A stretch of DNA of 64,000 nucleotides from Balanoglossus misakiensis (taxonomy: Eukaryota; Animalia; Hemichordata), in NCBI GenBank assembly GCA_040954595.2, contig JBECUI020000027.1:186001-250000 (forward strand), given 5' to 3'. A program made the translations under genes and the position numbers. Under the pieces are notes generated by a model. It saw nothing but the letters and a program-made list of their open reading frames with translations, did not search any database and was not told the origin of the DNA. Of this stretch, positions 1-57,008 are shown one piece after another; the first letter of the stretch is position 1; the number at the start of each line of letters is the position of its first letter.

Positions 1-261
1 TCATCCATGGCATAGAGGCTGCGGAAACCCACAGGGGGCATCAGCGGGGCGGTAAAGGAATAGCGGGACAGCGACGGGGACGAACAGGAAAACAAGAATA
101 CCGGCAAGAGCAAAACAAGTAAAATCTGTATCTGATGGGAAAATGTAGAGCCTCTTGGGGCTACTATCTTACATGCACGTGAGTGAGTGAGTGAGTGAGT
201 GAGTGAGTGAGTGAGTGAGTGAGTGAGTGAGTGAGTTCTCCAACCTCTTCATATTATTCAT
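1..261 (-). CDS. Cassette 0, 5' part only (truncated by window); phase OFF
   Basis: ATG at 261, (TCAC)14, lipobox LFSC; frame hits TAA just after the tract. Confidence 0.85.
179..234 (-). repeat. (TCAC)14 tract, OFF
   Basis: 56 bp counted. Confidence 0.95.
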
Positions 262-296
262 ACCATATTCCTCCTAACAAAACATAAGTTAAGACT

Positions 297-325
297 AGTA
301 TACCTGATACTTTCGGCATTGGCAA
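297..325 (-). promoter_or_regulatory. Sigma70-type promoter of cassette 0 (same position in every cassette)
   Basis: TTGCCA-N17-TATACT, 36 bp upstream of ATG; AGGAGG 8 nt before ATG. Confidence 0.75.
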
Positions 326-654
326 GACCCCGTTCATACAAGCCTGCCCTGACAATACCCCAACGGCCTTAAAGCCGAAGAAAGGAAGCCCTCAGACCTC
401 AGCCCAAAGCTTGCAGCTCAGCCTCCGCAGGCCCAGACAATCCCGAAAGATTCACAAGCCCTGCCCCTGGGGAAAAAGTTACCTAGGACAGGGTCTTTCC
501 TGCATCCAGCATAGAGCTGTAGGGGACCAGGCGGTTTACAGCATAATTCCCTAACCTACACCGCCTGACATTCCTCAATAGAGCGGTTCCCCGGTTCGGT
601 AAGAACCTGAAAATCCGCTCACCACAGCAGCCCCGCCAAAGGCCGCCATCAGCA

Positions 655-1882
655 TTATGCCCCCGGCTGAATCTCTGTCTCTGCAAATTCAGACAGCCCG
701 GTAAGATTCACCGCGCTAACCCGGACAGACGCATTCGCAGGCAGAGTCTCGCCTTCCTGCAGCGTAACGCTGTGGGCGGTATCGCTGACATAGGCCACCG
801 GCATCCAATCCTCGCTCTGGGGGTTGCTGTATTCTATCAGATAGCCCTCGAAGGGGTTGTTGCCTAAATCGGAAACAGCCGGGGCTGTCCACGATACGGT
901 AAGGGTGTCGGTTAGCGTTGCTTCATCGGTTTGGACCTCCGCATTTAAGCCGGTCACGGCGGCGGGCGTGAGGGGATAGGGGTGGAGGTAATGTTGAAAA
1001 GAATACGGGGTGGCAAAAAATCTTGCTTGAAATCTCAATCCTAATTTTTTCCCGAAGTAATCCTTCTTATTATTGCTGAAATATTCACTAACGTCTTCCA
1101 GATGAACAATACCACCCTTATTGCTGCGATTAAAAAGCGACATATCTAGATCATTGGAAACATAGTCCAAGTGTAGTAATTGTATTCCTTGAATGTCATT
1201 ATAAGGATAGGGGCCAATATCAAACAGAGCATAGAAGTAATAAAGTCCATTTTGAAAGCCAGGGGGGAAAGGGGACAAGATGGTATAACGGACATCAAAG
1301 TCTTCCCTCGTCACTGTGGGGGCTATAGAAACGTCAATACTGGTTGATGTTGGAAGTACGGTAGCCTCATCCACCTCAGCGGTAAACGTTACCGGATCAC
1401 CAGATTCGGTATCCCTCTGAACGCTTAAGCGGTACAGATAAGAAGAATCTGCTGTTATGTCAGTATCGGTGTAAGTCTCGGTATCCGGTGGCAGGGTAGC
1501 AAGCGTGGTGTAGCTGACCCCGGCATCGGAAGATTTCTCAAGCAGAAATCCCGTTTCATTAACATTGAGATCCTTCCAGGCCAGCTGTACGCCTGCATCA
1601 TCCATGGCATAGAGGCTGCGGAAACCCACAGGGGGCATCAGCGGGGCGGTAAAGGAATAGCGGGACAGCGACGGGGTAGGACAGGAAAACAAGACTGATG
1701 AGAAGAGCAAAACAAGTAAAATCTGTATCTGATGGGAAAATGTAGAGCCTCTTGGGGCTACTATCTTACATGCACGTGAGTGAGTGAGTGAGTGAGTGAG
1801 TGAGTGAGTGAGTGAGTGAGTGAGTGAGTGAGTGAGTGAGTGAGTGAGTGAGTGAGTTCTCCAACTTCTTCATATTATTCAT
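655..1882 (-). CDS. Cassette 1 variable FN3 lipoprotein; phase OFF
   Basis: Body ORF 655-1710 intact; real ATG at 1882 is out of frame because of (TCAC)20. Confidence 0.9.
1776..1855 (-). repeat. (TCAC)20 tract, OFF
   Basis: 80 bp counted. Confidence 0.95.
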
Positions 1883-2270
1883 ACCATATTCCTCCTAACA
1901 AAACATAAGTTAAGCCTAGTATACCTGATACTTACGGCACTGACAAGACCCCGTTTTTACAAGCCTACCCTGACAATACTCCAACGGTCTTAAAGCCGAA
2001 GAAAGGTGAAAAAACATGGGTGATGCCGAAACTAACTTCCTCAAATTTGAATTGAGAACTCTTTCCGATTTTATCAACATTGTGTTTATACAGATTTTTT
2101 CCCCGAAGATTAAGGCTGGGGCAGAACCTTCAGGAAAGGGGGCCAGGCGGTTTACAGCACAATTCCCTAATCTACACCGCCTGACATTCTTCAATAGAGC
2201 GGTTCCCCGGTTCGGAAAGAACCTAAAAATCCGCTCACCGCAGCGGCCCCGCCAAAGGCCGCCGTCAGCA

Positions 2271-3496
2271 TTATGCCCCCGGCTGAATCTCTGTCTCTGC
2301 AAATTCAGACAGCCCGGCAAGATTCACCGCGCTAACCCGGACAGACGCTTTCGCAGGCAGAGTCTCGCCTTCCTGCAGTGTAACGCTGTGAGTCGTATCG
2401 CTGACATAGGCCACCGGCATCCAATCCTCGCTCTGGGGGTTGCTGTATTCTATCAGATAGCCTTCAAAGGGGTTGTTGCCTGAATCGGAAACAGCTGGGG
2501 CTGTCCACGATACGGTAAGGGTGTCGGTTTTGCTTGCCGTATCGGTTTGAACCTCCGCATTTAAGCCGGTAACGGCGGCAGGCGTGAGGGGGTATGGGTG
2601 GAGGTGGAATGGAAAAGTATAGGGAACACCTAGTAGGGATAAATCAACTCTAAATTCTGATCTCTTCCCAAATTGAAGCTTTTTATTATTGTCAAAATAC
2701 TGAAGAACGTCCCGTGGATAAAACGTAGCCCCCTTATCGTGACTGCGATTAAACAGCGAGAACTCTATATCACCCGTTGGAACGTCAAGGTTTAAAAGTA
2801 CTGATCCACTTCCTCCTTCATCGTAGAGGTAAGTACCGATGTCAAAAAGGGCATAGAAATAAAACTTAGGATTTGAACCTATTGAAGAAGGATTCAAAAC
2901 GGAAAAACGGACATCAAAGTCTCCCTTCGTCACTGTGGGGGCTACAGCAACATCAAGACTGGGGTTTGATGGAAGTACGGTAGCCTCATCCACCTCAGCG
3001 GTAAACGTTACCGGATCACCGGATTCGGTATCCCTCTGAACGCTTAAGCGATACAGATAAGAAGAATCTGCTGTTATGTCTGTATCGGTGTAAGTTTCGG
3101 TATCCGGTGGCAGGGTAGCAAGCGTGGTATAGCTGGCCCCGGCATCCGAAGATTTCTCAAGCAGAAATCCCGTTTCATTAACATTGAGATCCTTCCAGGC
3201 CAGCTGCACACCCACATCATCCATGGCATAGAGGCTACGGAAACCCACAGGAGGCATCAGCGGGGCGGTAAAGAAATACGGGAGAGGTGGCGACGGGGAC
3301 GAACAGGAAAACAAGACTGATGAGAAGAGCAAAACAAGTAAAATCTGTATTTGGTGGGAAAATATAGAGCCTCTGGGGGCTACTATCTTACATGTACGTG
3401 AGTGAGTGAGTGAGTGAGTGAGTGAGTGAGTGAGTGAGTGAGTGAGTGAGTGAGTGAGTGAGTGAGTGAGTTCTCCAACCTCTTCATATTATTCAT
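2271..3496 (-). CDS. Cassette 2 variable FN3 lipoprotein; phase OFF
   Basis: Body ORF 2271-3332; (TCAC)18. Confidence 0.9.
3398..3469 (-). repeat. (TCAC)18 tract, OFF
   Basis: 72 bp counted. Confidence 0.95.
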
Positions 3497-3889
3497 ACCA
3501 TATTCCTCCTAGCAAAACATAAGTTAAGCCTAGTATACCTGATACTTTCGGCATTGGCAAGACCCCGTTCTTACAAGCCTGCCCTGACAATACCCCAACG
3601 GTCTTAAAGCCGCAGAAAGGAAGCCCTCAGACCTCAGCCCAAAGCTTGCAGCTCAGCCTCCGCAGGCCCAGACAATCCCGAAAGATTCACAAGCCCTGCC
3701 CCTGGGAAAAAAGTTACCTAGGACAGGGTCTTTCCTGCATCCAGCATAGAGCTGTAGGGGACCAGGCGGTTTACAGCATAATTCCCTAACCTACACCGCC
3801 TGACATTCCTCAATAGAGCGGTTCCCCGGTTCGGAAAGAACCTGAAAATCCGCTCACCACAGCGGCCCCGCCAAAGGCCGCCGTCAGCA

Positions 3890-5136
3890 TTATGCCCCCG
3901 GCTGAATCTCTGTCTCTGCAAATTCAGACAGCCCGGCAAGATTCACCGCGCTAACCCGGACAGACGCATTCGCAGGCAGAGTCTCCCCTTCCTCCAGCGT
4001 AACGCTGTGGGCGGTATCGCTGACATAGGCCACCGGCATCCAATCCTCGCTCTGGGGGTTGCTGTATTCTATCAGATAGCCCTCGAAGGGGTTGTTGCCT
4101 AAATCGGAAACAGCGGGAGCTGTCCACGATACGGTAAGGGTGTCGGTTTTGCTTGCTGCATCGGTTTGGACCTCCGCCTTTAAGCCGGTCACGGCGGCGG
4201 GCGTGAGGGGGTATGGGTGGAGGTAATGTTGAAAAGTATACGGTTTGGCAAAACTTACTCCCTCAAATCTAAATTCTAATTTTTTCCCGAAGAAATCTTT
4301 CCTATTAGTGCTGAAATATTCACGAGCATCCTCTGGGTAGAAAGTACCACCCGTATTATCGCTCTGATTAAAAAGCGACATATCTATATCATTGGAAAGA
4401 TATTCTAGTTGTAGCACTCTTAATCCTCCTAAGCCTACACCCGGATCTGAATAGGGGCCAATATCAAACAGAGTAAAGAGGTTATAAATTCCACCTATAA
4501 AGGTAGTGATGGAAGAGGACAAGATGGTAAAACGGACATCAAAGTCTCCCTTCGTCACTGTGGGGGCTACAGAAACGTCAATAATATCGATTGATGTTGT
4601 AATTACGGTGGCCTCATCCACCTCAGCAGTAAACGTTACCGGATCACCAGATTTGGTATCCCTCTGAACGCTTAAGCGGTACAGATAAGAAGAATCTGCT
4701 TCTATGTCAGTATCGGTGTAAGTCTCGGTATCCGGTGGCAGGGTAGCAAGCGTGGTATAGCTGGCCCCGGCATCCGAAGATTTCTCAAGCAGAAATCCTG
4801 TTTCATTAGCATTGAGATCCTTCCAGGCCAGCTGCACACCCGCATCATCCATGGCATAGAGACTACGGAAACCCACAGGGGGCATCAGCGGGGCGGTAAA
4901 GAAATACGGGAGAGGTGGCGACGGGGACGAACAGGAAAACAAGACTGATGAGAAGAGCAAAACAAGTAAAATCTGTATTTGGTGGGAAAATGTAGAGCCT
5001 CTGGGGGCTACTATCTTACATGCACGTGAGTGAGTGAGTGAGTGAGTGAGTGAGTGAGTGAGTGAGTGAGTGAGTGAGTGAGTGAGTGAGTGAGTGAGTG
5101 AGTGAGTGAGTTCTCCAACCTCTTCATATTATTCAT
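3890..5136 (-). CDS. Cassette 3 variable FN3 lipoprotein; phase OFF
   Basis: Body ORF 3890-4960; (TCAC)21. Confidence 0.9.
5026..5109 (-). repeat. (TCAC)21 tract, OFF
   Basis: 84 bp counted. Confidence 0.95.
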
Positions 5137-5524
5137 ACCATATTCCTCCTAACAAAACTTAAGTTAAGCTTAGTATACCCGATACTTACGACTTCGACAA
5201 GACCCCGTTCATACAAGCCTGCCCTGACAATACCCCAGCGGCCTTAAAGCCGAAGAAAGGTAAAAAAAACATGGGTGATGCCGAAACTAACTTCCTCAAA
5301 TTTGAATTGAGAACTCTTTCCGATTTTATCAACATTGTGTTTATACAGATTTTTTCCCCGAAGATTAAGGCTGGGCAGAACCTTCAGGAAAGGGGGCCGG
5401 GCGGTTTACAGCACAATTCCCTAACCTACACCGCCTGACATTCCTCAATAGAGCGGTTCCCCGGTTCGGAAAGAACCTAAAAATCCGCTCACCGCAGCGG
5501 CCCCGCCAAAGGCCGCCGTCAGCA

Positions 5525-6734
5525 TTATGCCCCCGGCTGAATCTCTGTCTCTGCAAATTCAGACAACCCGGTAAGATTCACCGCACTAACCCGGACAGAC
5601 GCGTTCGCAGGCAGAGTCTCGCCTTCCTGCAGCGTAACGCTGTAGGTGGCTTCTCTCACCCAGGCCACCGGCATCCAATCCTCGCTCTGGGGATTGCTGT
5701 ATTCTATCAGATAGCCATCAAAGGGGTTGTTGCCTGAATCGGAAACAGCGGGGGCTGTCCACGATACGGTAAGGGTATCGGTTTTGCTTGCCGTATCGGT
5801 TTGAACCTCCGCCTTTAAGCCGGTCACGGCGGCGGGCGTGAGGGGGTATGGGTGGAGGTGGAATTGAAAAGGAAACGGTTGGCCAAAAGCTACTGCCTCA
5901 AATGAAAATTCTAATCTTTTTCCGAACTGATCCTTCCTATTATTGCGGAAATATTTACGAGCGTCTTCATCATCATAAGTACCACCCGTATCATCGTTCT
6001 GATTAAAAAGCGTAATAACTATATTGTCATAAGAAAGTTGAAACAATTGCAAAAGCTGCAATCCACGAGTGTTCACCTCATCATAGAGGTGGGGGCCAAT
6101 GTCAAAGAAAGCATAGAAAATATACCTATTAAATAATGCTAGGGGGGACAAAAGGGAAAAACGGACATCAAAGTCTTCCTTTGTCACTGTGGGGGCTATA
6201 GAAACGTCAATACTATCGGTTTGTGCTGTAATTATGGTAGCCTCATCCACCTCAGCGGTAAACGTTACTGGATCACTGGATTCGGTATCCCTCTGAACGC
6301 TTAAGCGGTACAGATAAGAAGAATCTGCTTCTATGTCAGTATCGGTGTAAGTCTCGGTATCCGGGGACAGGGTAGCAAGGGTGGTGTAGCTGGCCCCGGC
6401 ATCGGAAGATTTCTCAAGCAGAAATCCCGTTTCATTAACATTGAGATCCTTCCAGGCCAGCTGCACACCCGTATCATCCATGGCATAGAGGCTGCGGAAA
6501 CCCACAGGAGGCATCAGCGGGGAAGCAAAGGAATACAGGGACGGCAACGGGGACGAACAGGAAAACAAGAATGCCGGCAAGAGCAAAACAAGTAAAATCT
6601 GTATCTGATGGGAAAATGTAGAGCCTCTTGGGGCTACTATCTTACATGCACGTGAGTGAGTGAGTGAGTGAGTGAGTGAGTGAGTGAGTGAGTGAGTGAG
6701 TGAGTGAGTTCTCCAACTTCTTCATATTATTCAT
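5525..6734 (-). CDS. Cassette 4 variable FN3 lipoprotein; phase OFF
   Basis: Body ORF 5525-6586; (TCAC)14. Confidence 0.9.
6652..6707 (-). repeat. (TCAC)14 tract, OFF
   Basis: 56 bp counted. Confidence 0.95.
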
Positions 6735-7127
6735 ACCATATTCCTCCTAACAAAACTTAAGTTAAGCCTAGTATACCTGATACTTACGGCATTGGCAAGA
6801 CCCCGTTCATACAAGCCTGCCCTGACAATACCCCAACGGTCTTAAAGCCGAAGAAAGGAAGCCCTCAGACCTCAGCCCAAAGCCTGCAGCTCAGCCTCCG
6901 CAGGCCCAGACAATCCCGAAAGATTCATAAGCCCTGCCCCTGGGGAAAAAGTTACCTAGGACAGGGTCTTTCCTGCATCCAGCATAGAGCTGTAGGGGGC
7001 CGGGCGGTCTACAGCATAATTCCCTAACCTACACCGCCTGACATTCCTCAATAGAGCGGTTTCCCGATTCAAAAAGAACCGGAAAATCCGCTCCCAGCAG
7101 CGGCACCGCAAAACGCCGCAGTCAGCA

Positions 7128-8353
7128 TCATCCCCCCGGCTGAATCTCCGTCTCAGCAGATTCAGACAACCCGGTAAGATTCACCGCTCTGACCCGGACA
7201 GACGCTTTCGCAGGCAGAGTCTTCCCCTCCTGCAGCGTAACGCTGTGAGCGGTATCGCTGACATAGGCCACCGGCATCCAATCCTCGCTCTGGGGATTGC
7301 TGTATTCTATCAGATAGCCTTCAAAGGGATTGTTGCCTGAATCGGAAACAACCGGGGCTGTCCACGATACGGTAAGGGTATCGGTTTTGCTTGCCGTATC
7401 GGTTTGAACCTCCGCTTTTAAGCCGGTAACGGCGGCGGGTGGGAGGGGGTAGGGGTGGAGGTGGAATTGAAAAGAATACGGTTGGGTAAAAAATCTTCCT
7501 TGAAGTCGAAATCCTAATTTTTCCCCAAAGTAATCCTTCCTATTATTGTTAAAATATAGATCAACATCCGTTGGGTGGAAAATACCACCCTTATCATTGC
7601 TGCGATTAAAAAGCGATATATATATATCTATATCATTGGTGGGAACAGAATCCAATTGTCGTAATTGTAATCCATCAGTGGCGTCATCATAGGTATCGGA
7701 GCCAATGTCAAACAGAGCAAAGATGTAATAATTTCCATGTGTGAAGCCAGGAGGGAAAGGGGCCAACATGGTAAAACTGACATCAAAGTCTCCCCTCGTC
7801 ACTGTGGGGGCTACAGCAACGTCAATATCGGGACTGATTGATGGAAGTACGGTAGCCTCATCCACCTCAGCGGTAAACGTTACCGGATCACCAGATTCGG
7901 TATCCCTCTGAACGCTTAAGCGGTACAGATAAGAAGAATCTGCTTCTATGTCAGTATCGGTGTAAGTCTCGGTATCCGGTGGCAGGGTAGCAAGCGTGGT
8001 ATAGCTGACCCCGGAATCTGAAGATTTCTCAAGCAGAAATCCCGTTTCATTAACATTGAGATCCTTCCAGGCCAGCTGTACGCCTGCATCATCCATGGCA
8101 TAGAGACTACGGAAACCCACAGGGGGCATCAACGGGGCGGCAAAGGAATACCGGGACAGCGACGGGGACGAACAGGAAAACAAGAATGCCGGCAAGAGCA
8201 AAACAAGTAAAATCTGTATCTGATGGGAAAATATAGAGCCTCTTGGGGCTACTATCTTACATGCACGTGAGTGAGTGAGTGAGTGAGTGAGTGAGTGAGT
8301 GAGTGAGTGAGTGAGTGAGTGAGTGAGTTCTCCAACCTCTTCATATTATTCAT
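7128..8353 (-). CDS. Cassette 5 variable FN3 lipoprotein; phase OFF
   Basis: Body ORF 7128-8201; (TCAC)15. Confidence 0.9.
8267..8326 (-). repeat. (TCAC)15 tract, OFF
   Basis: 60 bp counted. Confidence 0.95.
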
Positions 8354-8735
8354 ACCATATTCCTCCTAGCAAAACATAAGTTAAGACTAGTATACCTGAT
8401 ACTTACGACTTCGACAAGACCCCGTTCATACAAGCCTACCCCAACGGCCTTAAAGCCGAAGAAAGGAAGCCCTCAGACCTCAGCCCAAAGCCTGCAGCTC
8501 AGCCTCCGCAGGCCCAGACAATCCCGAAAGATTCATAAGCCCTGCCCCTGGGAAAAAAGTTACCTAGGACAGGGTCTTTCCTGCATCCAGCATAAACCTG
8601 TAGGGGGCCGGGCGGTTTACAGCATAATTTCCTAACCTACACCGCCTGACATTCCTCAATAGAGCGGTTCCCCGGTTCGGAAAGAACCTAAAAATCCGCT
8701 CACCGCAGCGGCCCCGCCAAAGGCCGCCGTCAGCA

Positions 8736-9951
8736 TTATGCCCCCGGCTGAATCTCTGTCTCTGCAAATTCAGACAGCCCGGCAAGATTCACCGCGCTAA
8801 CCCGGACAGACGCATTCGCAGGCAGAGTCTCGCCTTCCTGCAGCGTAACGCTGTGGGCGGTATCGCTGACATAAGCCACCGGCATCCAATCCTCGCTCTG
8901 GGGATTGCTGTATTCTATCAGATAGCCCTCGAAGGGGTTGTTGCCTGAATCGGAAACAGCTGGAGCTGTCCACGATACGGTAAAGGTGTCGGTTTTGCTT
9001 GCAGTATCGGTTTGGACCTCCGCCTTTAAGCCGGTAACGGCGGCGGGCGTGAGGGGGTATGGGTGGAGGTGGAATGGGAAAGGATATGATAAGGTAGCGA
9101 ATTCACCTTCAAATATAAATCCTAATCTTTGTCCGAAGTAATCCTTCCTATTATTGCTGAAATATCCACCAGCGTCGGACACATAAACAATACCACCCTT
9201 ATCATTGCTGCGATTAAAAAGCGACATATCTACTATATCATTGGAATCATAATCCAATTGTAGGATTTTTAATCCTAAATTGGGCCCATGGGGATCATAG
9301 GGATAGGGTCCAATGTCAAACAGAGCATAGATGTGATAATTTCCACTTGGGCCGGGGGGGAAAGGGGGCAAGATGGTAAAACTGACATGAAAGTCTTCCT
9401 TTGTCACTGTGGGGACTACAGAAGCGTCAATACTGGGGTTCACTGGAATTACGGTAGCCTTATCCACCTCGGCGGTAAACGTTACCGGATCACCGGATTC
9501 GGTATCCCTCTGAACGCTTAAGCGGTACAGATAAGAAGAATCTGCTTCTATGTCAGTATCGGCGTAAGTCTCGGTATCCGGTGGCAGGGTAGCAAGCGTG
9601 GTATAGCTGGCCCCGGCATCCGAAGATTTCTCAAGCAGAAATCCCGTTTCATTAGCATTGAGATCCTTCCAGGCCAGCTGTACGCCTGCATCATCCATGG
9701 CATAGAGGCTACGGAAACCCACAGGAGGCATCAGCGGGGCGGCAAAGGAATACAGGGACGGCGACGGGGACGAACAGGAAAACAAGAATGCCGACAAGAG
9801 CAAAACAAGTAAAATCTGTATCTGATGGGAAAATATAGAGCCTCTTGGGGCTACTATCTTACATGCACGTGAGTGAGTGAGTGAGTGAGTGAGTGAGTGA
9901 GTGAGTGAGTGAGTGAGTGAGTGAGTTCTCCAACCTCTTCATATTATTCAT
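8736..9951 (-). CDS. Cassette 6 variable FN3 lipoprotein; phase OFF
   Basis: Body ORF 8736-9803; (TCAC)14. Confidence 0.9.
9869..9924 (-). repeat. (TCAC)14 tract, OFF
   Basis: 56 bp counted. Confidence 0.95.
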
Positions 9952-10350
9952 ACCATATTCCTCCTAACAAAACATAAGTTAAGACTAGTATACCTAATAC
10001 TTACGACTTCGACAAGACCCCGTTCATACAAGCCTGCCCTGACAATACCCCAACGGCCTTAAAGCCGAAGAAAGGAAGCCCTCAGACCTCAGACCTCAGC
10101 CCAAAGCCTGCAGCTCAGCCTCCGCAGGCCCAGACAATCCCGAAAGATTCACAAGCCCTGCCCCTGGGAAAAAGTTACCTAGGACAGGGTCTTTCCTGCA
10201 TCCAGCATAGAGCTGTAGGGGACCAGGCGGTTTACAGCATAATTCCCTAACCTACACCGCCTGACATTCCTCAATAGAGCGGTTCCCCGGTTCGGAAAGA
10301 ACCTAAAAATCCGCTCACCACAGCAGCCCCGCCAAAGGCCGCCGTCAGCA

Positions 10351-11553
10351 TTATGCCCCTGGCTGAATCTCTGTCTCTGCAAATTCAGACAACCCGGTAA
10401 GATTCACCGCCCTGACCCGGACAGACGCGTTCGCAGGCAGAGTCTCGCCTTCCTGCAGCGTAACGCTGTGGGCGGTATCGCTGACATAGGCCACCGGCAT
10501 CCAATCCTCGCTCTGGGGATTGCTGTATTCTATCAGATAGCCCTCAACGGGGTTGTTGCCTAAATCGGAAACAGCGGGAGCTGTCCACGATACGGTAAGG
10601 GTATCGGTTTTGCTTGCCGTATCGGTTTGAACCTCCGCCTTTAAGCCGGTAACGGCGGCGGGCGTGAGGGGATAGGGGTGGAGGTGGAATTGAAAAGAAT
10701 ACAGTATGGTAAAGAATTCACTTTCAAATATAAATCCTAATCTTTTGCCGAAGTAATCCTTCCTATTATTGCTGAAATATTCACCAGCGTCGGACACATA
10801 AACAATACCACCCTTATCATTGCTGCGATTAAAAAGCGACATATCTATATCATTGGAATCATGAATCAATTGTAGCATTAGTAATCCAGTCGTGGCCCCA
10901 TTGGGATCATAGGGATAGGGGCCAATGTCAAACAGAGTATAGAGGTTATAAACTCCACTTGGGGGGGGGACAAAATGGTAAAACGGACATCAAAGTCTTC
11001 CCTCGTCACTGTGGGGGCTACCGCAACATCAAAACTGGTGCTTCTCGGAAGTACGGTGGTCTCATCCACCTCAGCGGTAAACGTTACCGGTTCACCGGAT
11101 TCGGTATCTCTCTGAACGCTTAAGCGGTACAGATAAGAAGAATCTGCTTCTATGTCAGTATCGGTGTAAGTCTCGGTATCCGGTGGCAGGGTAGCAAGCG
11201 TGGTATAGCTGACCCCGGCATCTGAAGATTTCTCAAGCAGAAATCCTGTTTCATTAGCATTGAGATCCTTCCAGGCCAGCTGCACACCTGCGTCATCCAT
11301 GGCGTAGAGACTACGGAAACCCACAGGAGGCATCAGCGGGGCGGTAAAGGAATACAGGGACGGCGATGGGGACGAACAGGAAAACAAGAATGCCGACAAG
11401 AGCAAAACAAGTAAAATCTGTATCTGCTGGGAAAATGTAGAGCCTCTTGGGGCTACTATCTTACATGCACGTGAGTGAGTGAGTGAGTGAGTGAGTGAGT
11501 GAGTGAGTGAGTGAGTGAGTGAGTGAGTTCTCCAACCTCTTCATATTATTCAT
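10351..11553 (-). pseudogene. Cassette 7 variable FN3 lipoprotein; OFF, plus an internal frameshift at a C9 run
   Basis: (TCAC)14; body split into 10878-11405 and 10351-10878 by the G9 run at 10961-10969. Confidence 0.85.
11471..11526 (-). repeat. (TCAC)14 tract, OFF
   Basis: 56 bp counted. Confidence 0.95.
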
Positions 11554-11931
11554 ACCATATTCCTCCTAACAAAACTTAAGTTAAGCCTAGTATACCTGAT
11601 ACTTACGGCACTGACAAGGCCCCGTTCATACAAGCCTACCCCAACGGCCTTAAAGCCGAAGAAAGGTAAAAAAAACATGGGTGATGCCGAAACTAACTTC
11701 CTCAAATTTGAATTGAGAACTCTTTCCGATTTTATCAACATTGTGTTTATACAGACTTTTCCCCCGAAGATTAAGGCTGGGGCAGAACCTTCAGGAAAGG
11801 GGGCCAGGCGGTTTACAGCATAATTCCCTAACCTACACCGCCTGACATTCCTCAATAGAGCGGTTCCCCGGTTCGGAAAGAACCTAAAAATCCGCTCACC
11901 GCAGCGGCCCTGCCAAAGGCCGCCGTCAGCA

Positions 11932-13162
11932 TTATGCCCCCGGCTGAATCTCTGTCTCTGCAAATTCAGACAACCCGGTAAGATTCACCGCCCTGACCCG
12001 GACAGACGCGTTCGCAGGCAGAGTCTCGCCTTCCTGCAGCGTAACGCTGTGGGCGGTACCGCTGACATAGGCCACCGGCATCCAATCCTCGCTCTGGGGG
12101 TTGCTGTATTCTATCAGATAGCCTTCAAAGGGGTTGTTGCCTAAATCGGAAACAGCTGGGGCTGTCCACGATACGGTAAGGGTGTCGGTTTTGCTTGCCG
12201 TATCGGTTTGAACCTCCGCATTTAAGCCGGTAACGGCGGCAGGCGTGAGGGGGTATGGGTGGAGATGGAATTGAAAAGAATGCGGTTGGGCAAAAAATCT
12301 TCCTTCAAATTCTAATCCTAATTTTTCCCCGAAGTAATCCTTCCTATTATTGCTGAAATATTCACCAGCGTCGGACACATAAACAATACCACCCTTATCA
12401 TTGCTACGATTAAAAAGCGACATATCTATATCATTGGAAACATAATCCAATTGTAGCACTCGTAATCTATGAGTGGCCGCCTCATCATATGGATAGGGGC
12501 CAATGTCAAACAGAGGATAGAGGTAATAAATTCCATATGCAAAGTCAGGAGGGAAAGGGCCCAAAATGGTAAAACTGACATCAAAGTCTCCCCTCGTCAC
12601 TGTGGGGGCTACAGAAACGTCAAGATCGGGACTGATTGTTGTGGCCTTATCCACCCGGGGGGTAAACGTTACCGGGTCACTGGATTCGGTATCCCTCTGA
12701 ACGCTTAAGCGGTACAGATAAGAAGAATCTGCTTCTATGTCTGTATCGGTGTAAGTTTCGGTATCTGGTGGCAGGGTAGCAAGCGTGGTGTAGCTGACCC
12801 CGGCATCGGAAGATTTCTCAAGCAGAAATCCCGTTTCATTAACATTGAGATCCTTCCAGGCCAGCTGTACGCCTGCATCATCCATGGCATAGAGGCTGCG
12901 GAAACCCACAGGGGGCATCAGCGGGGCGGTAAAGGAATAGCGGGACAGCGACGGGGACGAACAGGAAAACAAGAATACCGGCAAGAGCAAAACAAGTAAA
13001 ATCTGTATCTGATGGGAAAATGTAGAGCCTCTTGGGGCTACTATCTTACATGCACGTGAGTGAGTGAGTGAGTGAGTGAGTGAGTGAGTGAGTGAGTGAG
13101 TGAGTGAGTGAGTGAGTGAGTGAGTGAGTGAGTGAGTTCTCCAACCTCTTCATATTATTCAT
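11932..13162 (-). CDS. Cassette 8 variable FN3 lipoprotein; phase OFF
   Basis: Body ORF 11932-12990; (TCAC)20. Confidence 0.9.
13056..13135 (-). repeat. (TCAC)20 tract, OFF
   Basis: 80 bp counted. Confidence 0.95.
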
Positions 13163-13555
13163 ACCATATTCCTCCTAACAAAACATAAGTTAAGACTAGT
13201 ATACCTGATACTTTCGGCATTGGCAAGACCCCGTTCATACAAGCCTGCCCTGACAATACCCCAACGGCCTTAAAGCCGAAGAAAGGAAGCCCTCAGACCT
13301 CAGCCCAAAGCTTGCAGCTCAGCCTCCGCAGGCCCAGACAATCCCGAAAGATTCACAAGCCCTGCCCCTGGGGAAAAAGTTACCTAGGACAGGGTCTTTC
13401 CTGCATCCAGCATAGAGCTGTAGGGGACCAGGCGGTTTACAGCATAATTCCCTAACCTACACCGCCTGACATTCCTCAATAGAGCGGTTCCCCGGTTCGG
13501 TAAGAACCTGAAAATCCGCTCACCACAGCAGCCCCGCCAAAGGCCGCCATCAGCA

Positions 13556-14759
13556 TTATGCCCCCGGCTGAATCTCTGTCTCTGCAAATTCAGACAGCCC
13601 GGTAAGATTCACCGCGCTAACCCGGACAGACGCATTCGCAGGCAGAGTCTCGCCTTCCTGCAGCGTAACGCTGTGGGCGGTATCGCTGACATAGGCCACC
13701 GGCATCCAATCCTCGCTCTGGGGGTTGCTGTATTCTATCAGATAGCCCTCGAAGGGGTTGTTGCCTAAATCGGAAACAGCCGGGGCTGTCCACGATACGG
13801 TAAGGGTGTCGGTTAGCGTTGCTTCATCGGTTTGGACCTCCGCCTTTAAGCCAGTAACGACGGCGGGCGTGAGGGGATATGGGTGGAGGTAGAATTGAAA
13901 AGAATACGGTTGGGTAAAAAATACTCCCTCAAATGAAAATTCTAATCTTTTTCCGAACTGAGTATCCCTGTTATTGATTGAATATGTATAAGCATCTTCC
14001 TCGTGGAAAGTAATCCCATTATCACTGTTGCGATTAAAAAGCGACACACCTATATCATTGCTGGAAGAAGGATCAGCTTGGAACATTAGCACTCGAGTGG
14101 TCCCCTCATAGAGATCGGGGCCAATATCAAAGAGCGCATAGAAAAAAAATGTATAATTAGTTGGGAGATTCAAAACGGAAAAACGGACATCAAAGTCTCC
14201 CTTTGTCACTGTTGGGGCTACAGCAACGTCAAGATCGGGGATGTTTGATGGAAGTACGGTGGCCTTATTCACCCTGGCGGTAAACGTTACCGAGTCACCG
14301 GATTCGGTATCCCTCTGAACGCTTAAGCGGTACAGATAAGAAGAATCTGCTTCTATGTCTGTATCGGTGTAAGTCTCGGTATCCGGTGGCAGGGTAGCAA
14401 GCGTGGTGTAGCTGGCCCCGGCATCGGAAGATTTCTCAAGCAGAAATCCTGTTTCATTAACATTGAGATCCTTCCAGGCCAGCTGCACACCCGCATCATC
14501 CATGGCGTAGAGACTACGGAAACCCACAGGGGGCATCAGCGGGGCGGTAAAGAAATACGGGAGAGGTGGCGACGGGGACGAACAGGAAAACAAGACTGAT
14601 GAGAAGAGCAAAACAAGTAAAATCTGTATCTGATGGGAAAATGTAGAGCCTCTGGGGGCTACTATCTTACATGTACGTGAGTGAGTGAGTGAGTGAGTGA
14701 GTGAGTGAGTGAGTGAGTGAGTGAGTGAGTGAGTTCTCCAACCTCTTCATATTATTCAT
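13556..14759 (-). CDS. Cassette 9 variable FN3 lipoprotein; phase OFF
   Basis: Body ORF 13556-14611; (TCAC)14. Confidence 0.9.
14677..14732 (-). repeat. (TCAC)14 tract, OFF
   Basis: 56 bp counted. Confidence 0.95.
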
Positions 14760-15151
14760 ACCATATTCCTCCTAACAAAACTTAAGTTAAGACTAGTATA
14801 CCTAATACTTACGACTTCGACAAGACCCCGTTCATACAAGCCTGCCCTGACAATACCCCAACGGCCTTAAAGCCGAAGAAAGGAAGCCCTCAAACCTCAG
14901 CCCAAAGCCTGCAGCTCAGCCTCCGCAGGTCCAGACAATCCCGAAAGATTCACAAGCCCTGCCCCTGGGAAAAAGTTACCTAGGACAGGGTCTTTCCTGC
15001 ATCCAGCATAGAGCTGTAGGGGGCCGGGCGGTTTACAGCATAATTCCCTAACCTACACCGCCTGACATTCCTCAATAGAGCGGTTCCCCGGTTCGGAAAG
15101 AACCTAAAAATCCGCTCACCACAACAGCCCCGCCAAAGGCCGCCGTCAGCA

Positions 15152-16386
15152 TTATGCCCCCGGCTGAATCTCTGTCTCTGCAAATTCAGACAGCCCGGCA
15201 AGATTCACCGCGCTAACCCGGACAGACGCGTTCACAGGCAGAGTCTCGCCTTCCTGCAGCGTAACGCTGTGGGCGGTATCGCTGACATAGGCCACCGGCA
15301 TCCAATCCTCGCTCTGGGGGTTGCTGTACTCTATCAGGTAGCCTTCAAAGGGGTTGTTGCCAGAATCGGAAACAGCGGGGGCTGTCCACGATACGGTAAG
15401 GGTGTCGGTTTTGCTTGCTGCATCGGTTTGAACCTCCGCCTTTAAGCCGGTAACGGCGGTGGGCAGGACAGGATAGGGGTGGAGGTGGAATTGAAAAGAA
15501 TACGGTTGGGCAAAAAATACTCCCTCAAATACAAATTCTAATTTTTCCCCAAAGTAATCCTTCCTATTATTGTTAAAATATAGACCAGCATCCTGTAGGT
15601 AGAAATCACCACCCTTCTCATTGCTTCGATTAAAAAGCGAAATATCTAGATCACCGGAACTATAAAGTAATTGTGTTACTTTTACTCCTGAAGTGGGATT
15701 TCCACCATAGCGATAGGGTCCGATATCAAAAAGAGTATAGAGGTTGTAAACTCTTCCTCCTGAGAAGCCGGGAGGGAAAGGGGACGAAATGGTAAAACGG
15801 ACATCAAAGTCTTCCCTCGTCACTGTGGGGGCTACAAGAGTGTCAAGACCGGTATTTATTGGAATTACGGTGGCCTCATCCACCTCAGCGGTAAACGTTA
15901 CCGGGTCACTGGATTCGGTATCCCTCTGAACGCTTAAGCGGTACAGATAAGAAGAATCTGCGGTTATGTCAGTATCGGTGTAAGTCTCGGTATCCGGTGG
16001 CAGGGTAGCAAGCGTGGTATAGCTGGCCCCGGCATCCGAAGATTTCTCAAGCAGAAATCCCGTTTCATTAACATTGAGATCCTTCCAGGCCAGCTGCACA
16101 CCCGCATCATCCATGGCATAGAGACTACGGAAACCCACAGGGGGCATCAGCGGGGCGGTAAAGAAATACGGGAGAGGTGGCGACGGGGACGAACAGGAAA
16201 ACAAGACTGATGAGAAGAGCAAAACAAGTAAAATCTGTATTTGGTGGGAAAATATAGAGCCTCTGGGGGCTACTATCTTACATGCACGTGAGTGAGTGAG
16301 TGAGTGAGTGAGTGAGTGAGTGAGTGAGTGAGTGAGTGAGTGAGTGAGTGAGTGAGTGAGTTCTCCAACCTCTTCATATTATTCAT
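15152..16386 (-). CDS. Cassette 10 variable FN3 lipoprotein; phase OFF
   Basis: Body ORF 15152-16222; (TCAC)18. Confidence 0.9.
16288..16359 (-). repeat. (TCAC)18 tract, OFF
   Basis: 72 bp counted. Confidence 0.95.
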
Positions 16387-16758
16387 ACCATATTCCTCCT
16401 AACAAAACTTAAGTTAAGCCTAGTATACCTAATACTTACGACTTCGACAAGACCCCGTTCATACAAGCCTGCCCTGACAATACCCCAGTGGCCTTAAAGC
16501 CGCAGAAAGGTAAAAAAAACATGGGTGATGCCGAAACTAACTTCCTCAAATTTGAATTGAGAACTCTTTCCGATTTTATCAACATTTTGTTTCTACAGAT
16601 TTTTTTTGGCAGACTAAGGTTGGGATTAAATTTCCAGGAAGGAAACCGCACCGTTACAGCGTGATTCCCCTGGCATTCCTCATAGAGCGGTTTCCCGATT
16701 CAAAAAGAACCGGAAAATCCGCTCCCAGCAGCGCCCCCGCAAAACGCCGCCGTCAGCA

Positions 16759-17991
16759 TCATCCCCCCGGCTGAATCTCCGTCTCAGCCGATTCAGACAA
16801 CCCGGCAAGATTCACCGCCCTGACCCGGACAGACGCGTTCGCAGGCAGAGTCTTCCCCTCCTGCAGCGTAACGCTGTGGGCGGTATCGCTGACATAGGCC
16901 ACCGGCATCCAATCCTCGCTCTGGGGATTGCTGTATTCTATCAGATAGCCCTCAACGGGGTTGTTGCCTGAATCGGAAACAACCGGGGCTGTCCACGATA
17001 CGGTAAGGGTGTCGGTTTTGCTTGCCGTATCGGTTTGAACCTCTGCTTTTAGGCCGGTAACGGCGGCGGGCGTGAGGGGGTAGGGGTGGAGGTAATGTTG
17101 AAAAGGATACGGTTTGGCAAAAATTACTTCCTCAAATCTAAATTCTAATTTTTTCCCGAAGAAATCTTTCCTATTAGTGCTGAAATATTCACGAGCATCC
17201 TTTGGGTAGAAAGTACCACCCGTATTATCGCTCTGATTAAAAAGCGACATATCTATATCATTGGAAAGATATTCTAGTTGTAGCACTATTAATCCTCCTC
17301 TACTACCCGGAACTATACCCGGATCTAGATGGGGGCCAATATCAAACAGAGCATAGAAGTTCCAAGTTCCATTTTGGAGGGGAGACAAAATGGTAAAACG
17401 GACATCAAAGTCTTCCCTCGTCACTGTGGGGGCTACAGCAACATCAAGACTGGGGTTTCTTGGAAGTACGGTGGCCTCATCCACCTCAGCGGTAAACGTT
17501 ACCGGGTCACTGGATTCGGTATCCCTCTGAACGCTTAAGCGGTACAGATAAGAAGAATCTGCGGTTATGTCAGTATCGGTGTAAGTTTCGGTATCCGGGG
17601 ACAGGGTGGCAAGCGTGGTATAGCTGGCCCCAGCATCGGAAGATTTCTCAAGCAGAAATCCTGTTTCATTAACATTGAGATCCTTCCAGGCCAGCTGCAC
17701 ACCCGCATCATCCATGGCGTAGAGACTACGGAAACCCACAGGGGGCATCAGCGGGGCGGTAAAGAAATACGGGAGAGGTGGCGACGGGGACGAACAGGAA
17801 AACAAGACTGATGAGAAGAGCAAAACAAGTAAAATCTGTATCTGATGGGAAAATGTAGAGCCTCTGGGGGCTACTATCTTACATGTACGTGAGTGAGTGA
17901 GTGAGTGAGTGAGTGAGTGAGTGAGTGAGTGAGTGAGTGAGTGAGTGAGTGAGTGAGTGAGTGAGTTCTCCAACCTCTTCATATTATTCAT
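16759..17991 (-). CDS. Cassette 11 variable FN3 lipoprotein; phase ON (full length 410 aa)
   Basis: Continuous ORF MNNMKRLEN(SLTH)6S...LLVLLFSSVLFSC; FN3-like motifs (LAWKD..NETGF..Y.YRL; LTVSWTAP..GYLIEY..VRVRAVN). Confidence 0.95.
   Translation of the reverse strand: MNNMKRLENSLTHSLTHSLTHSLTHSLTHSLTHSRTCKIVAPRGSTFSHQIQILLVLLFSSVLFSCSSPSPPLPYFFTAPLMPPVGFRSLYAMDDAGVQLAWKDLNVNETGFLLEKSSDAGASYTTLATLSPDTETYTDTDITADSSYLYRLSVQRDTESSDPVTFTAEVDEATVLPRNPSLDVAVAPTVTREDFDVRFTILSPLQNGTWNFYALFDIGPHLDPGIVPGSRGGLIVLQLEYLSNDIDMSLFNQSDNTGGTFYPKDAREYFSTNRKDFFGKKLEFRFEEVIFAKPYPFQHYLHPYPLTPAAVTGLKAEVQTDTASKTDTLTVSWTAPVVSDSGNNPVEGYLIEYSNPQSEDWMPVAYVSDTAHSVTLQEGKTLPANASVRVRAVNLAGLSESAETEIQPGG
17889..17964 (-). 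repeat. (TCAC)19 tract, ON
   Basis: 76 bp counted; keeps the reading frame. Confidence 0.95.
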
Positions 17992-18026
17992 ACCATATTC
18001 CTCCTAACAAAACTTAAGTTAAGCCT

Positions 18027-18055
18027 AGTATACCTAATACTTACGACTTCGACAA
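18027..18055 (-). promoter_or_regulatory. Sigma70-type promoter of the ON cassette
   Basis: TTGTCG-N17-TATACT. Confidence 0.7.
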
Positions 18056-18149
18056 GACCCCGTTCATACAAGCCTGCCCTGACAATACCCCAACGGCCTT
18101 AAAGCCGAAGAAAGGAAGCCCTCAGATCTTAGCCCAAAGCCTGCAGCTC

Positions 18150-18440
18150 AGCCTCCGCAGGCTCAGACAATCCCGAAAGATTCTCAAGCCCTGACACGGA
18201 AACAAGTTTTTGGGGACAGGGTTTTTTTGCATCCAGCGTAACGCCCTAGGGGGTTTCACCCACCCAGGCCTCAAGGCACTCTGGGGGCTGCTGTATCTCA
18301 CCAGGTAGCCCCCAGAGAGAGTTGTTCCCCGACCCGCAAAGAACTGACGCCGTCCACGATACAGTAGGAGTATTGGTTTTGCTTGTCGTATCGGTTTTAC
18401 CCTAGTCTTCAGGTTGCTAACGGCGGCGGGCAGAAGGGGA
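18150..18440 (-). pseudogene. Eroded relic of the lipoprotein C-terminal FN3 coding region
   Basis: Matches cassette 3' ends (gtccacgatac, ggttttgcttg.cgtatcggttt, taacggcggcgggc, cagacaa..aagatt) with indels. Confidence 0.75.
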
Positions 18441-19108
18441 ATGAAAGATTAGATAGAAACTTCTTCTTTTCTTAAGCTTTTTTGGCACCCTTCTTATCAA
18501 TACCCGGCTTGTTTTTTTGTTTTTTACACTTGAACAGAAGGTGGTTCTGAACCTTCTTCCCCTTCTATGAACTTAAAGATGAGGAAACTCCACACAGGCA
18601 CGGCCGCAAAACCTAATCGGATTAAAAGGAAGGGGGAGCTACGATTAAGAGCCTCAACACAAAAATGGGTAGACTCAGAATTCTACAGATCTGTGGGAAT
18701 GCTTGTAAGTAAAGACAACAGCTGACACAGGAGTTAAGTGAGGACATACAGCCGCTCAGGTTTTGGCAGATGAGGAATATGGAGCCTAAGAAAATCTTTT
18801 CAATTTCATGGGGAAAAAATTTTATTTCATCGAGGCCTTCTTAATTTTCTTAAGGAATACGGTGCTGCATAAAAATACTATTTTCCCCAGTTAAGCATCT
18901 TTCTTGCCCAATTGCCTAAGTCTTTCATTTAGAACGGGCCGTTATGACACAGTTTTTAGGAAGCAAATCTTGTCTGGGTCACTATGACACGCAAACCCAC
19001 TCTGCATTAGGCTTCAATCCCCCTTTTCCTCATTGTTTCTTGGTCCATCCCAACTATTTTCACCATAAAAAATGTTTCCTTGTACCTATTTTTTAGATAA
19101 ATGGCAAA

Positions 19109-23512: not shown

Positions 23513-25253
23513 ATGACATTCCAAGATTTTCAATTTGATCAGAGAATTCAGAAGAGTATTGATAAGGCAGGGTTTGAATCGCCCATGCCTGTACAGGAAG
23601 AAACATTTAAGCTGCTTCTTCGAGATAAACGGGATGTTTACGTTAAATCGCAAACTGGAACGGGGAAAACTGCGGCCTTCATCCTGAGTATTTACCAATT
23701 AAAGCTTACAGAAAAAGAATGGGAGGACAAAAAAGCCCTGGTGGTTGTTCCTACCCGAGAACTTTCCCATTCAGATTGAACAAGAGGCCAAACTTTTAGG
23801 AAGCTATCTCGACTTCGTCATAGGAGCCGTGTACGGTGGTGTGGGTTACAAAAGCCAAGAGGCATTACTTGCTCAAGGGGTGGATTTTTTGATCGGTACC
23901 CCCGGGAGGCTTATCGATTTCAGCCAGAAAGGACTACTTGGATTTTCAAGAGTTTGGTTTTCTGGTCATTGATGAGGCCGATAGACTTTTTGACATGGGT
24001 TTTTCCCGGATCTGAAAAAAATTCTTAACAAGATGAGGCCCTATAATGAAAGGCGAACCATGCTTTTTCAGTGCCACTCTTAGCTCCCGAGTGGGCAATC
24101 TGGCCTGGGAATATATGAATAACCCCGGAGACGTAATCATTGATCCGGAAAAAGTTACCGTCGATACGGTAGTGCAGGAGCTCTACCATGTAGGCAAGGA
24201 GGAAAAGTTTGCCCTTCTTTTAGGGATCCTTAAAAAGAGAAGCCGCAAAGTGCCATAATTTTTACCAACACGCGTCACATGGCCTGGGAAGTAGCCAAAA
24301 GATTGGAAAAGAACGGACTAAAAGTCGAATGTCTGATGGGAGATCTTCCCCAATCGCAACGCTCCAGAATTGTCGAAAGGATTAAGCAAAAGGAACTTCA
24401 TTTCATGGTGGCCACCGATGTGGCAGCCAGAGGACTTCATATCAATGAATTGCATTACGTAATCAATTATGATGTGCCTCTGGAAGCTGAAAGCTATGTT
24501 CACAGGATTGGCCGTACTGCCCGGGCAGGGAAATCAGGAAAGACCATCACCCTGGCCTGTGAGGAATATGTCTATGGTCTTCTTCCCATAGAAAAATTTC
24601 TTAAGCGAAAAATTCCCGTAAAGTGGGCCGATGAAAGCCTTAAGGTTACCGACAAGAGTGCTGGAATGAATTTCCCACCCCAGGACAGGTACCGAGAGAT
24701 AGGAAAATCTTTTTCAGAGAAACGAGACTATAGAGATTCTGGACGGCAGAGAAGTGACCGTTCCTCCCGTTCCTCAGAGAGATATCCGAAAAGAAACGGC
24801 CGAAGCTCCCCTTCCTTAGAGCATAGGAAGCCCCAGATTAGCACCAGAAGTGCCAAGATTCAGGCCGTCATCTCCAAAGTGGTCAGTGAAGAATATCCGA
24901 GTAGAACACCATCGTTCCAGAAAAAGGAAACTCCTAGATACCCTCGAAGTTCTCGAAATCGTTCGCAAAAAACTGAATCCTACTCCAAAACAAGTTCTCA
25001 AAGACTAACAGCCTCCAGTTCCCTGGACGACAGGCTGGACTATTACAAGAAAAAGTATGGGGAAAATTTTCGTTCCAGCAATGCTTCTTCAGGAAAAACC
25101 TCCGAGAGTTTGTATAAGCTATCGCCTTCTGACAAGAAGCCTCAGCCTTCGTCCACAAGTCGCAAAGTGAATTCCCAGAGACGAACGGCTCCCGCTGCTC
25201 CTAAGCCAAAGAAGAGAGGATTCCTGAGCTGGCTTTTGGGAAAGAAGCCCTAG
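23513..25253 (+). pseudogene. DEAD-box RNA helicase (RhlB-like), split by ~4 frameshifts (possibly sequencing error)
   Basis: SQTGTGKT, PTREL, TPGRL, DEADRLFDMG (frame not in ORF track), FSAT, ATDVAARG, HRIGRTARAG; basic C-tail. Confidence 0.85.
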
Positions 25254-26083
25254 CGAACTTTTTTTAAGGAAAAAAAGGCCACCTGCCGTCCAGTCTTTCC
25301 CCCGCTTTTTCGGTAGGAGAAGAATTCTCGTTCTCGACAGGCCGTACAGAAGCCTGCTCTCCCTATATGCTCCTTTTTTAAACCAGCCTCCAGGAGCCAG
25401 GCAAGGTTTGCCGCTTCAAGGTCCAGGGAGTAAGCTCCGGAATTCTGAGGAGTAAATACCCCCGGAGGATAGGAAAAGTTTGCCGACATTTCTTCGAAGA
25501 CCTCCCTCCCCACAAAGTAGCAGCACGAGCTGATTCCAGGACCTATAACGGCCACCAGATCGGCTGGTCGGCTCCCTCGGCAGGCAACAAGCTGGCTTAC
25601 TGCCGCCGCCGTTATGCCCTGGGCCGTCCCCCGCCATCCGGCATGGCAAAGAGCCCCACTTTGTTGTTCGGGATCATAAAGGATAACCGGAAGACAGTCT
25701 GCCAGAAACACAACCAATAAGGCTCCGGTCTGGGTGACGAGTAAGGCATCCGTCCTGGAAATAGAAGGATGCTCCGAGTCTCGTCCCGAACCACATGCTT
25801 TAGCATCAACAAGAGCAATCTCCTTACCATGGACCTGTTCCCCCGAGGTCCAGGAAGACAGATCGTAGCCGAGGGCGGACAGGAAATAACGGCGATTCTC
25901 CTGGACAGTCTCAGAATCCTCCCCAACCGCATAGGCAAGATTAAGGGACTCCCAAGGACCGCTACCAAGTCCACCGCCCCGGGTGCTCAACCCCGCCTCG
26001 ATGAAGCTATTCCATGGCTTCAAGGCATTCCAGCGGTAAAACACCAAGCCGCCTTGAGTTTCTTTTGTCATTCCATCGATCAT
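25250..26083 (-). CDS. pgeF: PgeF/YfiH family (laccase-domain / purine nucleoside phosphorylase-like) protein
   Basis: STRGGG, QVHG, ADCLPV, HAGWRGT, IGPGI, CTAC..FFSYR. Confidence 0.9.
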   Translation of the reverse strand: MIDGMTKETQGGLVFYRWNALKPWNSFIEAGLSTRGGGLGSGPWESLNLAYAVGEDSETVQENRRYFLSALGYDLSSWTSGEQVHGKEIALVDAKACGSGRDSEHPSISRTDALLVTQTGALLVVFLADCLPVILYDPEQQSGALCHAGWRGTAQGITAAAVSQLVACRGSRPADLVAVIGPGISSCCYFVGREVFEEMSANFSYPPGVFTPQNSGAYSLDLEAANLAWLLEAGLKKEHIGRAGFCTACREREFFSYRKSGGKTGRQVAFFSLKKVR

Positions 26084-26361
26084 CTACCTGCCTCCTCCAA
26101 GCAACCAGCTTATTATCCTGCAGGAACTTCCTTGGTATCAAAGACTAAAACACACTATTGTTCCTGCAAACTTATTCCCTTGAGTGCAGCACTATGCACC
26201 GTGAATCAGAAAAACAAAGAACCAGAAGCTATGGTTCTGAAAAGGGAAGTGAGACTTGCTAATTCCACCTGTAAGTATTATGTTGTGGTATTCACCTTGC
26301 CTAGTACCTGTATGTCGATTAACCAGACAGATAGCCTAGGGTAGGAAATGGAGAGGAAAAA

Positions 26362-26915
26362 ATGTCTCTACGTGTTGCTGTGGCCTTAGCCGATGGATTT
26401 GAAGAAGTGGAAGCGGTTACTCCCATAGACTTCTTACGCCGGGCAGGGGTAGACCTTGCCATATTGGGAGTAGGTACCCGAAAACCTGTGGGGGCCAAGG
26501 GTGTCCAGATTTTTGCAGATGGCTTAATAAACGATGCCACGGTATCTCTGACGGCATTGTTCTACCCGGTGGATTGCCTGGGGCCGAAAACCTGTCTAAA
26601 TCAAGAGAGCTTCGAGATATTGTCCTAAAGCTTTTTTCCGAAGGAAAACTGATTGGGGCAATTTGTGCAGCACCGGCACTGGCCCTGGGGAGTTTTGGAA
26701 TTTTAAAAGGACGACAGTTCACCTGCTATCCTGGCTTTGAAACCCACGTAACCGAAGGCACCTTTTTAGAAGATAGGGTGGTCCAGGACGGCAACCTGAT
26801 TACCAGTAGAGGCGTTGGCACAGCTGCCGATTTTTCCCTTGCCCTGGTAAAAACTACCTCCTGGGAGATAAAAGCAGCCAGGAAGCTGGCTCAGGAGACC
26901 CTACACAAGTTTTGA
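26362..26915 (+). pseudogene. DJ-1/YajL/PfpI family protein, frameshifted
   Basis: LADGFEEVEA..PID.LRRAG, then PGAENL, AICAAP, TCYPG, ITSRG in another frame. Confidence 0.85.
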
Positions 26916-26999
26916 TTTTTCTCTACTGAAACACTTCAGCTTGTGGGGACGGGCAAAGAAGCGCCAGTATCTTGTCTAGGGAGCGATTTTTTTTTATTT

Positions 27000-28285: not shown

Positions 28286-28582
28286 AGAGCAAAACCTCCG
28301 AAAGTTTCGGGTCCTGATATTAGTTTAATGTAAAAAGTAAGGCAAGGCTTTTTTTGATCTTGTTCACCCTATAGTGAGGACATCATTTATCTGATCATAA
28401 ACAAACTGAGCATAATGGAGTGATTTCTCAGTTGTTATTGAAACAAACATCTCCCTTGGCTTGTCTTACCTTACAAGGAACACTTTGACCAACGGAGGAA
28501 AAATGCCTGTTCTTCCCTGCTCTCCCAGCTCGAATTCTTACCCTAAACCATACCTCTTCAAGAACTTGTTCTGGGGCTTCTC

Positions 28583-29890: not shown

Positions 29891-29910
29891 GCCTCGTTCT
29901 AGGTGGAATT

Positions 29911-56337: not shown

Positions 56338-56340
56338 CTT

Positions 56341-56985: not shown

Positions 56986-57008
56986 GAATTTCTCCTGATA
57001 AACATCGC

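Follow-up and report, generated by a model that had tools for sequence, protein, structure and literature searches.

The 64-kb window analysed here (positions 186,001 to 250,000 of contig JBECUI020000027.1, Balanoglossus misakiensis assembly GCA_040954595.2) opens with a tandem array of minus-strand gene cassettes, each carrying a tetranucleotide repeat close to its start codon. Twelve cassettes with a unit of ~1.6 kb are present, which is only a lower bound because the window start cuts the array within cassette 1. A repeat scan found 12 perfect GTGA runs in the window and no others. Read on the minus strand these are (TCAC)n tracts, with n = 14, 20, 18, 21, 14, 15, 14, 14, 20, 14, 18 and 19 in order (six distinct values, range 14–21), the same 12 counts as in an original prediction made for this DNA. 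The string TCACTCACTCAC occurs 177 times against 0.19 expected, every time within the 12 tracts. In 12/12 cassettes the tract starts 27 nucleotides (nt) past the ATG, and its 4-nt unit, which is not divisible by 3, lies within the 5' coding region. The junctions are identical and the flanks near-identical around all 12 tracts, while the lengths are variable.

Translation from each cassette's own ATG gave the full product (410 amino acids, aa; 17991-16759) from the twelfth tract only. This is the n = 19 tract that the original prediction had picked out as the only one in frame, under the name of cassette 11. The remaining frames also behave as it had described, with stops just past the tract: the seven tracts with n mod 3 = 2 end translation after 30–38 aa and the four with n mod 3 = 0 after 33–41 aa, so that 11/11 out-of-frame (OFF) cassettes stop early, at 30–41 aa. 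The repeat encodes SLTH in every frame, and both wrong frames meet stops right past it. All 11 OFF copies are a single 4-nt unit away from the in-frame (ON) length class. The bodies are open in 10/11 complete cassettes, although 10 of those 11 are OFF.

We predict from these translations that the cassette product is a surface lipoprotein. Past the tract, 12/12 cassettes encode ~18 residues, a 13-residue hydrophobic stretch and then [VF]LFS-C (judged by eye), that is, the hydrophobic leader, the lipobox with a small -1 residue and the Cys expected of spirochaetal lipoproteins; Ser at -1 agrees with the lipobox as set out in the available part of PMC2063517. The product would be lipidated at this Cys and displayed at the surface. 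Translational restart downstream of the tract is unlikely, because the in-frame TTG codons there match AGGAGG at only 1–3 of 6 positions and lie 3–9 codons before the Cys. The C-terminal domain is FN3 (PF00041, Pfam E 1.3e-9), and the N-terminal domain is FN3-like, judging from profile matches to multi-FN3 proteins and a beta-sandwich in a low-confidence model. Between these FN3-type ends lies a core of ~140 residues. A structure model of the whole protein (pLDDT 43.7) formed only the two FN3-like sandwiches, and prediction of the core by itself failed (pLDDT 32).

Upstream of each reading frame, a sigma70-type TTG[CT]C[AG]-17-TATACT element, with a spacer of 17 nt throughout, and an AGGAGG Shine-Dalgarno (SD) sequence eight bases 5' of the ATG are found in 12/12 cassettes (consensus matches, not mapped starts). 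The -35 variants (TTGCCA in four cassettes, TTGTCA in two, TTGTCG in six) are shuffled among the cassettes and could tune the expression level of each copy. A GC-rich hairpin follows 11/11 stops (no shuffle control), and 7/11 are listed as terminator-like. The DNA separating the cassettes (e.g. 295-654 and 1915-2270) falls into two spacer types, each a decayed remnant of cassette coding sequence. Type A, which resembles the C-terminal FN3 end, lies upstream of cassettes 1, 3, 5, 6, 7, 9, 10 and 12; type B, which resembles the end of the variable core, lies upstream of cassettes 2, 4, 8 and 11. An Rfam scan of 14.5–19.2 kb gave zero matches. Table 1 lists the array with the other features of the window.

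Table 1. Cassettes, tracts and other features, with positions counted from the first letter of the window.
Feature	Position	Strand	Description
Cassette 1	1-261	-	(TCAC)14 at 179-234, out of frame; body cut by window start; promoter-like site 297-325
Cassette 2	655-1882	-	(TCAC)20 at 1776-1855, out of frame; body intact; promoter-like site 1918-1946
Cassette 3	2271-3496	-	(TCAC)18 at 3398-3469, out of frame; body intact; promoter-like site 3532-3560
Cassette 4	3890-5136	-	(TCAC)21 at 5026-5109, out of frame; body intact; promoter-like site 5172-5200
Cassette 5	5525-6734	-	(TCAC)14 at 6652-6707, out of frame; body intact; promoter-like site 6770-6798
Cassette 6	7128-8353	-	(TCAC)15 at 8267-8326, out of frame; body intact; promoter-like site 8389-8417
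Cassette 7	8736-9951	-	(TCAC)14 at 9869-9924, out of frame; body intact; promoter-like site 9987-10015
Cassette 8	10351-11553	-	(TCAC)14 at 11471-11526, out of frame; body frameshifted at G9 (10961-10969); promoter-like site 11589-11617
Cassette 9	11932-13162	-	(TCAC)20 at 13056-13135, out of frame; body intact; promoter-like site 13198-13226
Cassette 10	13556-14759	-	(TCAC)14 at 14677-14732, out of frame; body intact; promoter-like site 14795-14823
Cassette 11	15152-16386	-	(TCAC)18 at 16288-16359, out of frame; body intact; promoter-like site 16422-16450
Cassette 12	16759-17991	-	Sole in-frame gene, 410 aa; (TCAC)19 n-region, h-region, predicted lipobox Cys66, FN3-like/variable/FN3
(TCAC)19 tract of cassette 12	17889-17964	-	In frame
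Cassette 12 promoter-like TTGTCG-17-TATACT and AGGAGG	18000-18055	-	Consensus matches
Decayed cassette 3' end	18141-18443	-	C-terminal FN3 DNA, ~68% identity, broken frames; upstream of cassette 12
Frameshift cluster	23513-31700		DEAD-box helicase gene 5, ackA 2, DJ-1/ThiJ-like gene at least 1, oppD/oppF fusion
IS256-family transposase	40723-41919		Intact
Second IS256-family copy	42231-42625		Partial, inverted, 75% identical
CHASE2/adenylate-guanylate cyclase, FecR-domain protein, unnamed proteins	52807-58945		One matches unannotated Spirochaetota clusters

The ends and the core of the product have diverged to very different degrees. Over the 10 intact bodies (the identity and substitution counts leave out cassette 1, cut by the window, and the frameshifted cassette 8), the ends are 92% identical with a ratio of nonsynonymous to synonymous substitution (dN/dS) of 0.25–0.26, and the hypervariable core is 56% identical (44–76%) with a dN/dS of 0.83. 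Because nearly all bodies are open and the FN3 ends keep so low a dN/dS, the OFF copies are not in decay; purifying selection on OFF bodies implies that these copies are expressed at times. The conserved parts are mosaic: for 80 informative sites in 11 cassettes, 1746/3160 site pairs are incompatible, 30% within 50 nt vs 59% further apart (PHI-like permutation p 0.0005). Because incompatible pairs are rarer at short range, the pattern indicates recombination among cassettes.

The core has no detectable relative in the searches made: a variable-region search returned 0 related sequences in 140 candidates, best Atlas scores were 0.82 or less, and PDB and Pfam gave no consistent match. The 20 matches from a full-protein search cover only 5–19% and are short enough to be the SLTH repeat. 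The top 150 hits of a profile search are large multi-FN3 proteins, with the best stretches within the N-terminal domain. Genome contigs yielded two loci matching at 38–39% over residues 22–91, without 3–6-nt tracts, and metagenome contigs yielded 91 candidates, none related to the cassette; no related array was found in either set. A DNA-pattern search recovered three loci with 4-unit repeats that lack similarity to the cassettes, and plasmids gave two weak matches, N-terminal only.

The host of the array is likely a spirochaete. The nearest Atlas clusters of a neighbouring protein are mostly Spirochaetota (score 0.97), and the best Ddl match is only 57% identical and gave no useful taxonomy; by these comparisons the lineage is without close relatives among the collections searched. 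Three sequencing runs are available for one sample, none recorded as RNA. Run X1 comprises 1.9 million contigs, from which we infer a mixed sample, and a consensus of such a sample would give the modal allele at each locus rather than the state of one cell. A second run under the same sample label, X2, has diverged cassette 5' ends and different downstream sequence at window 11264-11465, hinting at a related strain or a leader-sharing family. Summed X1 depth was 10–20 times higher in conserved than in variable parts; this ratio does not measure copy number, and nothing here is based on it.

We consider it probable, with good confidence, that the locus is an opa-like frameshift phase-variation system laid out as a vlhA-like tandem array of at least 12 cassettes, with every cassette transcribed under a promoter of its own and turned ON or OFF independently of the others, at translation, by slippage in its TCAC tract. 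Replication slippage would add or remove 4-nt units, and one length class in three would yield the full prelipoprotein. Gene conversion between the conserved flanks would reshuffle the copies. The core is likely diversified by pressure from host or phage, which may also give a mild advantage to having few copies ON, as in opa. Several points weigh against this interpretation. The tract lengths vary among paralogues of one consensus, and switching itself is deduced from that variation. Lipidation is only predicted, and the n-region is unusually long, with the Cys at 66. The core dN/dS is below 1, and relaxed constraint accounts for it as well as positive selection does. The taxonomy comes from a single Atlas look-up. 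Finally, housekeeping genes near the array are frameshifted, and the consensus may therefore hold indel errors.

Among known systems, the switch resembles that of gonococcal opa and the layout that of Mycoplasma gallisepticum vlhA. Like the array, gonococcal opa has 9–12 complete paralogues that recombine with one another and contain hypervariable regions, a repeat that sets the frame from within the signal-sequence coding region, and fewer genes in frame than 1/3 (PMC4534519, PMC13183285). In contrast, Opa are outer-membrane proteins encoded at separate loci with CTCTT pentamers, whereas predicted FN3 lipoproteins with TCAC tetramers are encoded here in one array with a 1.6-kb period. The cassettes have no sequence relationship to Opa (Pfam returned fn3 only, NCBIfam nothing and PDB eukaryotic FN3 chains only). 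The vlhA genes of M. gallisepticum are likewise tandem full-length lipoprotein genes, each with an intact open reading frame (ORF), a promoter and a variable simple repeat, but there the repeat unit is a trinucleotide that lies 5' of the promoter and controls transcription (PMC4534519). In the present array, full genes in tandem each have a promoter-like site, as in the vlhA type, and the repeat departs from the vlhA position: it is a tetranucleotide within the ORF, which would act by frameshift, and the promoter spacer is constant. Treponema phagedenis vpsA, vpsB and prrA are clustered spirochaete lipoprotein genes for which repeat-number variation has been proposed to cause phase variation; they differ in being three named genes with (TA)n in putative promoters and, in the available part of the source, no coding-frame switch (PMC13474147). 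Borrelia vls/vmp and Mycoplasma vsa/vpma share with the array a variable core between conserved flanks and recombination among copies. In vls and vmp expression is from one site, and the silent copies have no promoter. The same is described for vsa (PMC4534519). No such division into one site and promoterless or truncated copies is seen in the array, where 12/12 cassettes have promoter-like, SD and ATG sites.

The state of one ON copy in 12 is a single consensus snapshot and is not demonstrably beyond chance. With independent tracts and an ON rate of 1/3, P(≤1 of 12 ON) is 0.054, which reproduces the original estimate. It becomes 0.195 if the five n = 14 tracts are counted once and 0.22 if all tracts of equal length are treated as a single draw (range 0.20–0.23). 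Tract length shows no relation to flank similarity (permutation p 0.11–0.90), which gives no support to a common origin of equal lengths, and 0.054 stands. Sorted by frame, the tracts number 4, 1 and 7, with the ON class the rarest (chi-square p 0.105); an ON rate of 1/3 falls inside the 95% interval of 0.002–0.385. The denominator is itself uncertain: the array is cut at the window start, and two loose-end X1 contig motifs carry cassette-like variable sequence absent from the window, both of which could be the unseen body of cassette 1.

The low count had been read as a sign of selection for near mono-allelic expression. In such a model, selection or a cost of co-expression would hold about one cassette ON per cell, and the array would serve mutually exclusive antigenic variation even though the switches are independent. 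What stands of this proposal is the low rate: the likelihood of 1/12 is 0.38 at an ON rate of 1/12 and 0.27 at 1/6 vs 0.046 at 1/3, a 6–8-fold preference if the tracts are independent, and the rarity of the ON class points the same way. Gonococcal opa provides a precedent, with a mean of 1.7 genes in frame vs 3.4 expected across 219 genomes, a population-wide deficit with no locus difference and a mechanism given as not known in the available part of the source (PMC13183285). A deficit below chance is thus already known from opa. One array cannot show selection for few ON copies, however, because P ranges from 0.054 to 0.22; moreover, the window does not contain the whole array, and modal alleles at the individual loci do not give the state of one cell. 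A mild deficit of ON copies is plausible, slightly better than an even bet, and does not equal mono-allelism; near mono-allelic control itself we regard as improbable. We also hold doubtful the fuller picture of an undescribed spirochaete lineage in which an opa-type coding-repeat switch would act on at least 12 orphan-domain lipoproteins, about one being ON per cell by selection or coupling, with neither expression site nor recombinase.

The tract lengths, and hence the ON count, could in part be assembly or polishing artefacts within a real array, which we think unlikely. About nine frameshifts lie in housekeeping genes at 23.7–31.6 kb, 6–14 kb from the array: five in a DEAD-box helicase gene, two in ackA and at least one in a DJ-1-like gene, together with an oppD/oppF fusion (gene names assigned partly from motifs). 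Either errors in the local consensus or pseudogenisation may account for this cluster. A length of n = 14 recurs in five tracts (P ~0.09 under a uniform 14–21 null), and near-identical flanks make short-read polishing ambiguous. All tracts are nevertheless perfect with identical junctions, their lengths span six values, and the 11 complete bodies contain one break, the G9 run in the variable core of cassette 8. Most of the X1 contig depth at that site supports the run length in the window; a single contig, whose depth (3.2 of 22.5) is low enough for error, carries a different one. The G9 run may be either erroneous or a further slippery tract.

On the minus strand no cassette lies further upstream than the ON one, which in this sense is "transcriptionally first", as had been stated. 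The phrase carries no operon meaning, because 12/12 cassettes have their own promoter-like site. A preferred expression position at the array end, also proposed, was not supported: the 75 nt upstream of ON cassette 12 are identical to those of OFF cassette 11 (75/75; 74/75 for OFF cassette 10) and therefore reveal no expression site. Its -35 is the weaker-consensus, 9/12 variant common to five OFF copies. Beyond these 75 nt come the usual type-A spacer, the decayed gene end and then a divergent sigma-70 factor gene and PPDK, and no recombinase or invertase ORF was recognised adjoining the array. A privileged upstream end served by the other copies as donors, as in vls/vmp/vsa, would fit the terminal position of the lone ON copy, the gene conversion implied by the mosaic flanks, the 88% DNA identity between the cores of cassettes 12 and 4 (highest of 55 pairs) and possible read-through from further upstream, but with 12 full-length copies bearing their own signals, upstream sequence shared between ON and OFF copies and a probability of only 1/12–1/6, noted after the fact, that a single ON copy falls on an array end, we consider it very improbable. 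The end position of the ON copy is most likely coincidence.

One ON copy at the first position is therefore a weak claim alone, and it is partly anticipated by the opa data. The literature searched, which does not include most subscription papers, describes no TCAC coding-repeat lipoprotein array in a spirochaete, and the combination of a vlhA layout with an opa switch, here in a likely spirochaete, did not turn up in it. All the switches lie on one ~18-kb stretch, so that a single long read could phase the full ON/OFF state of one chromosome. The array thus allows a direct test of the question raised by opa, namely why the number of ON copies falls below the chance expectation.

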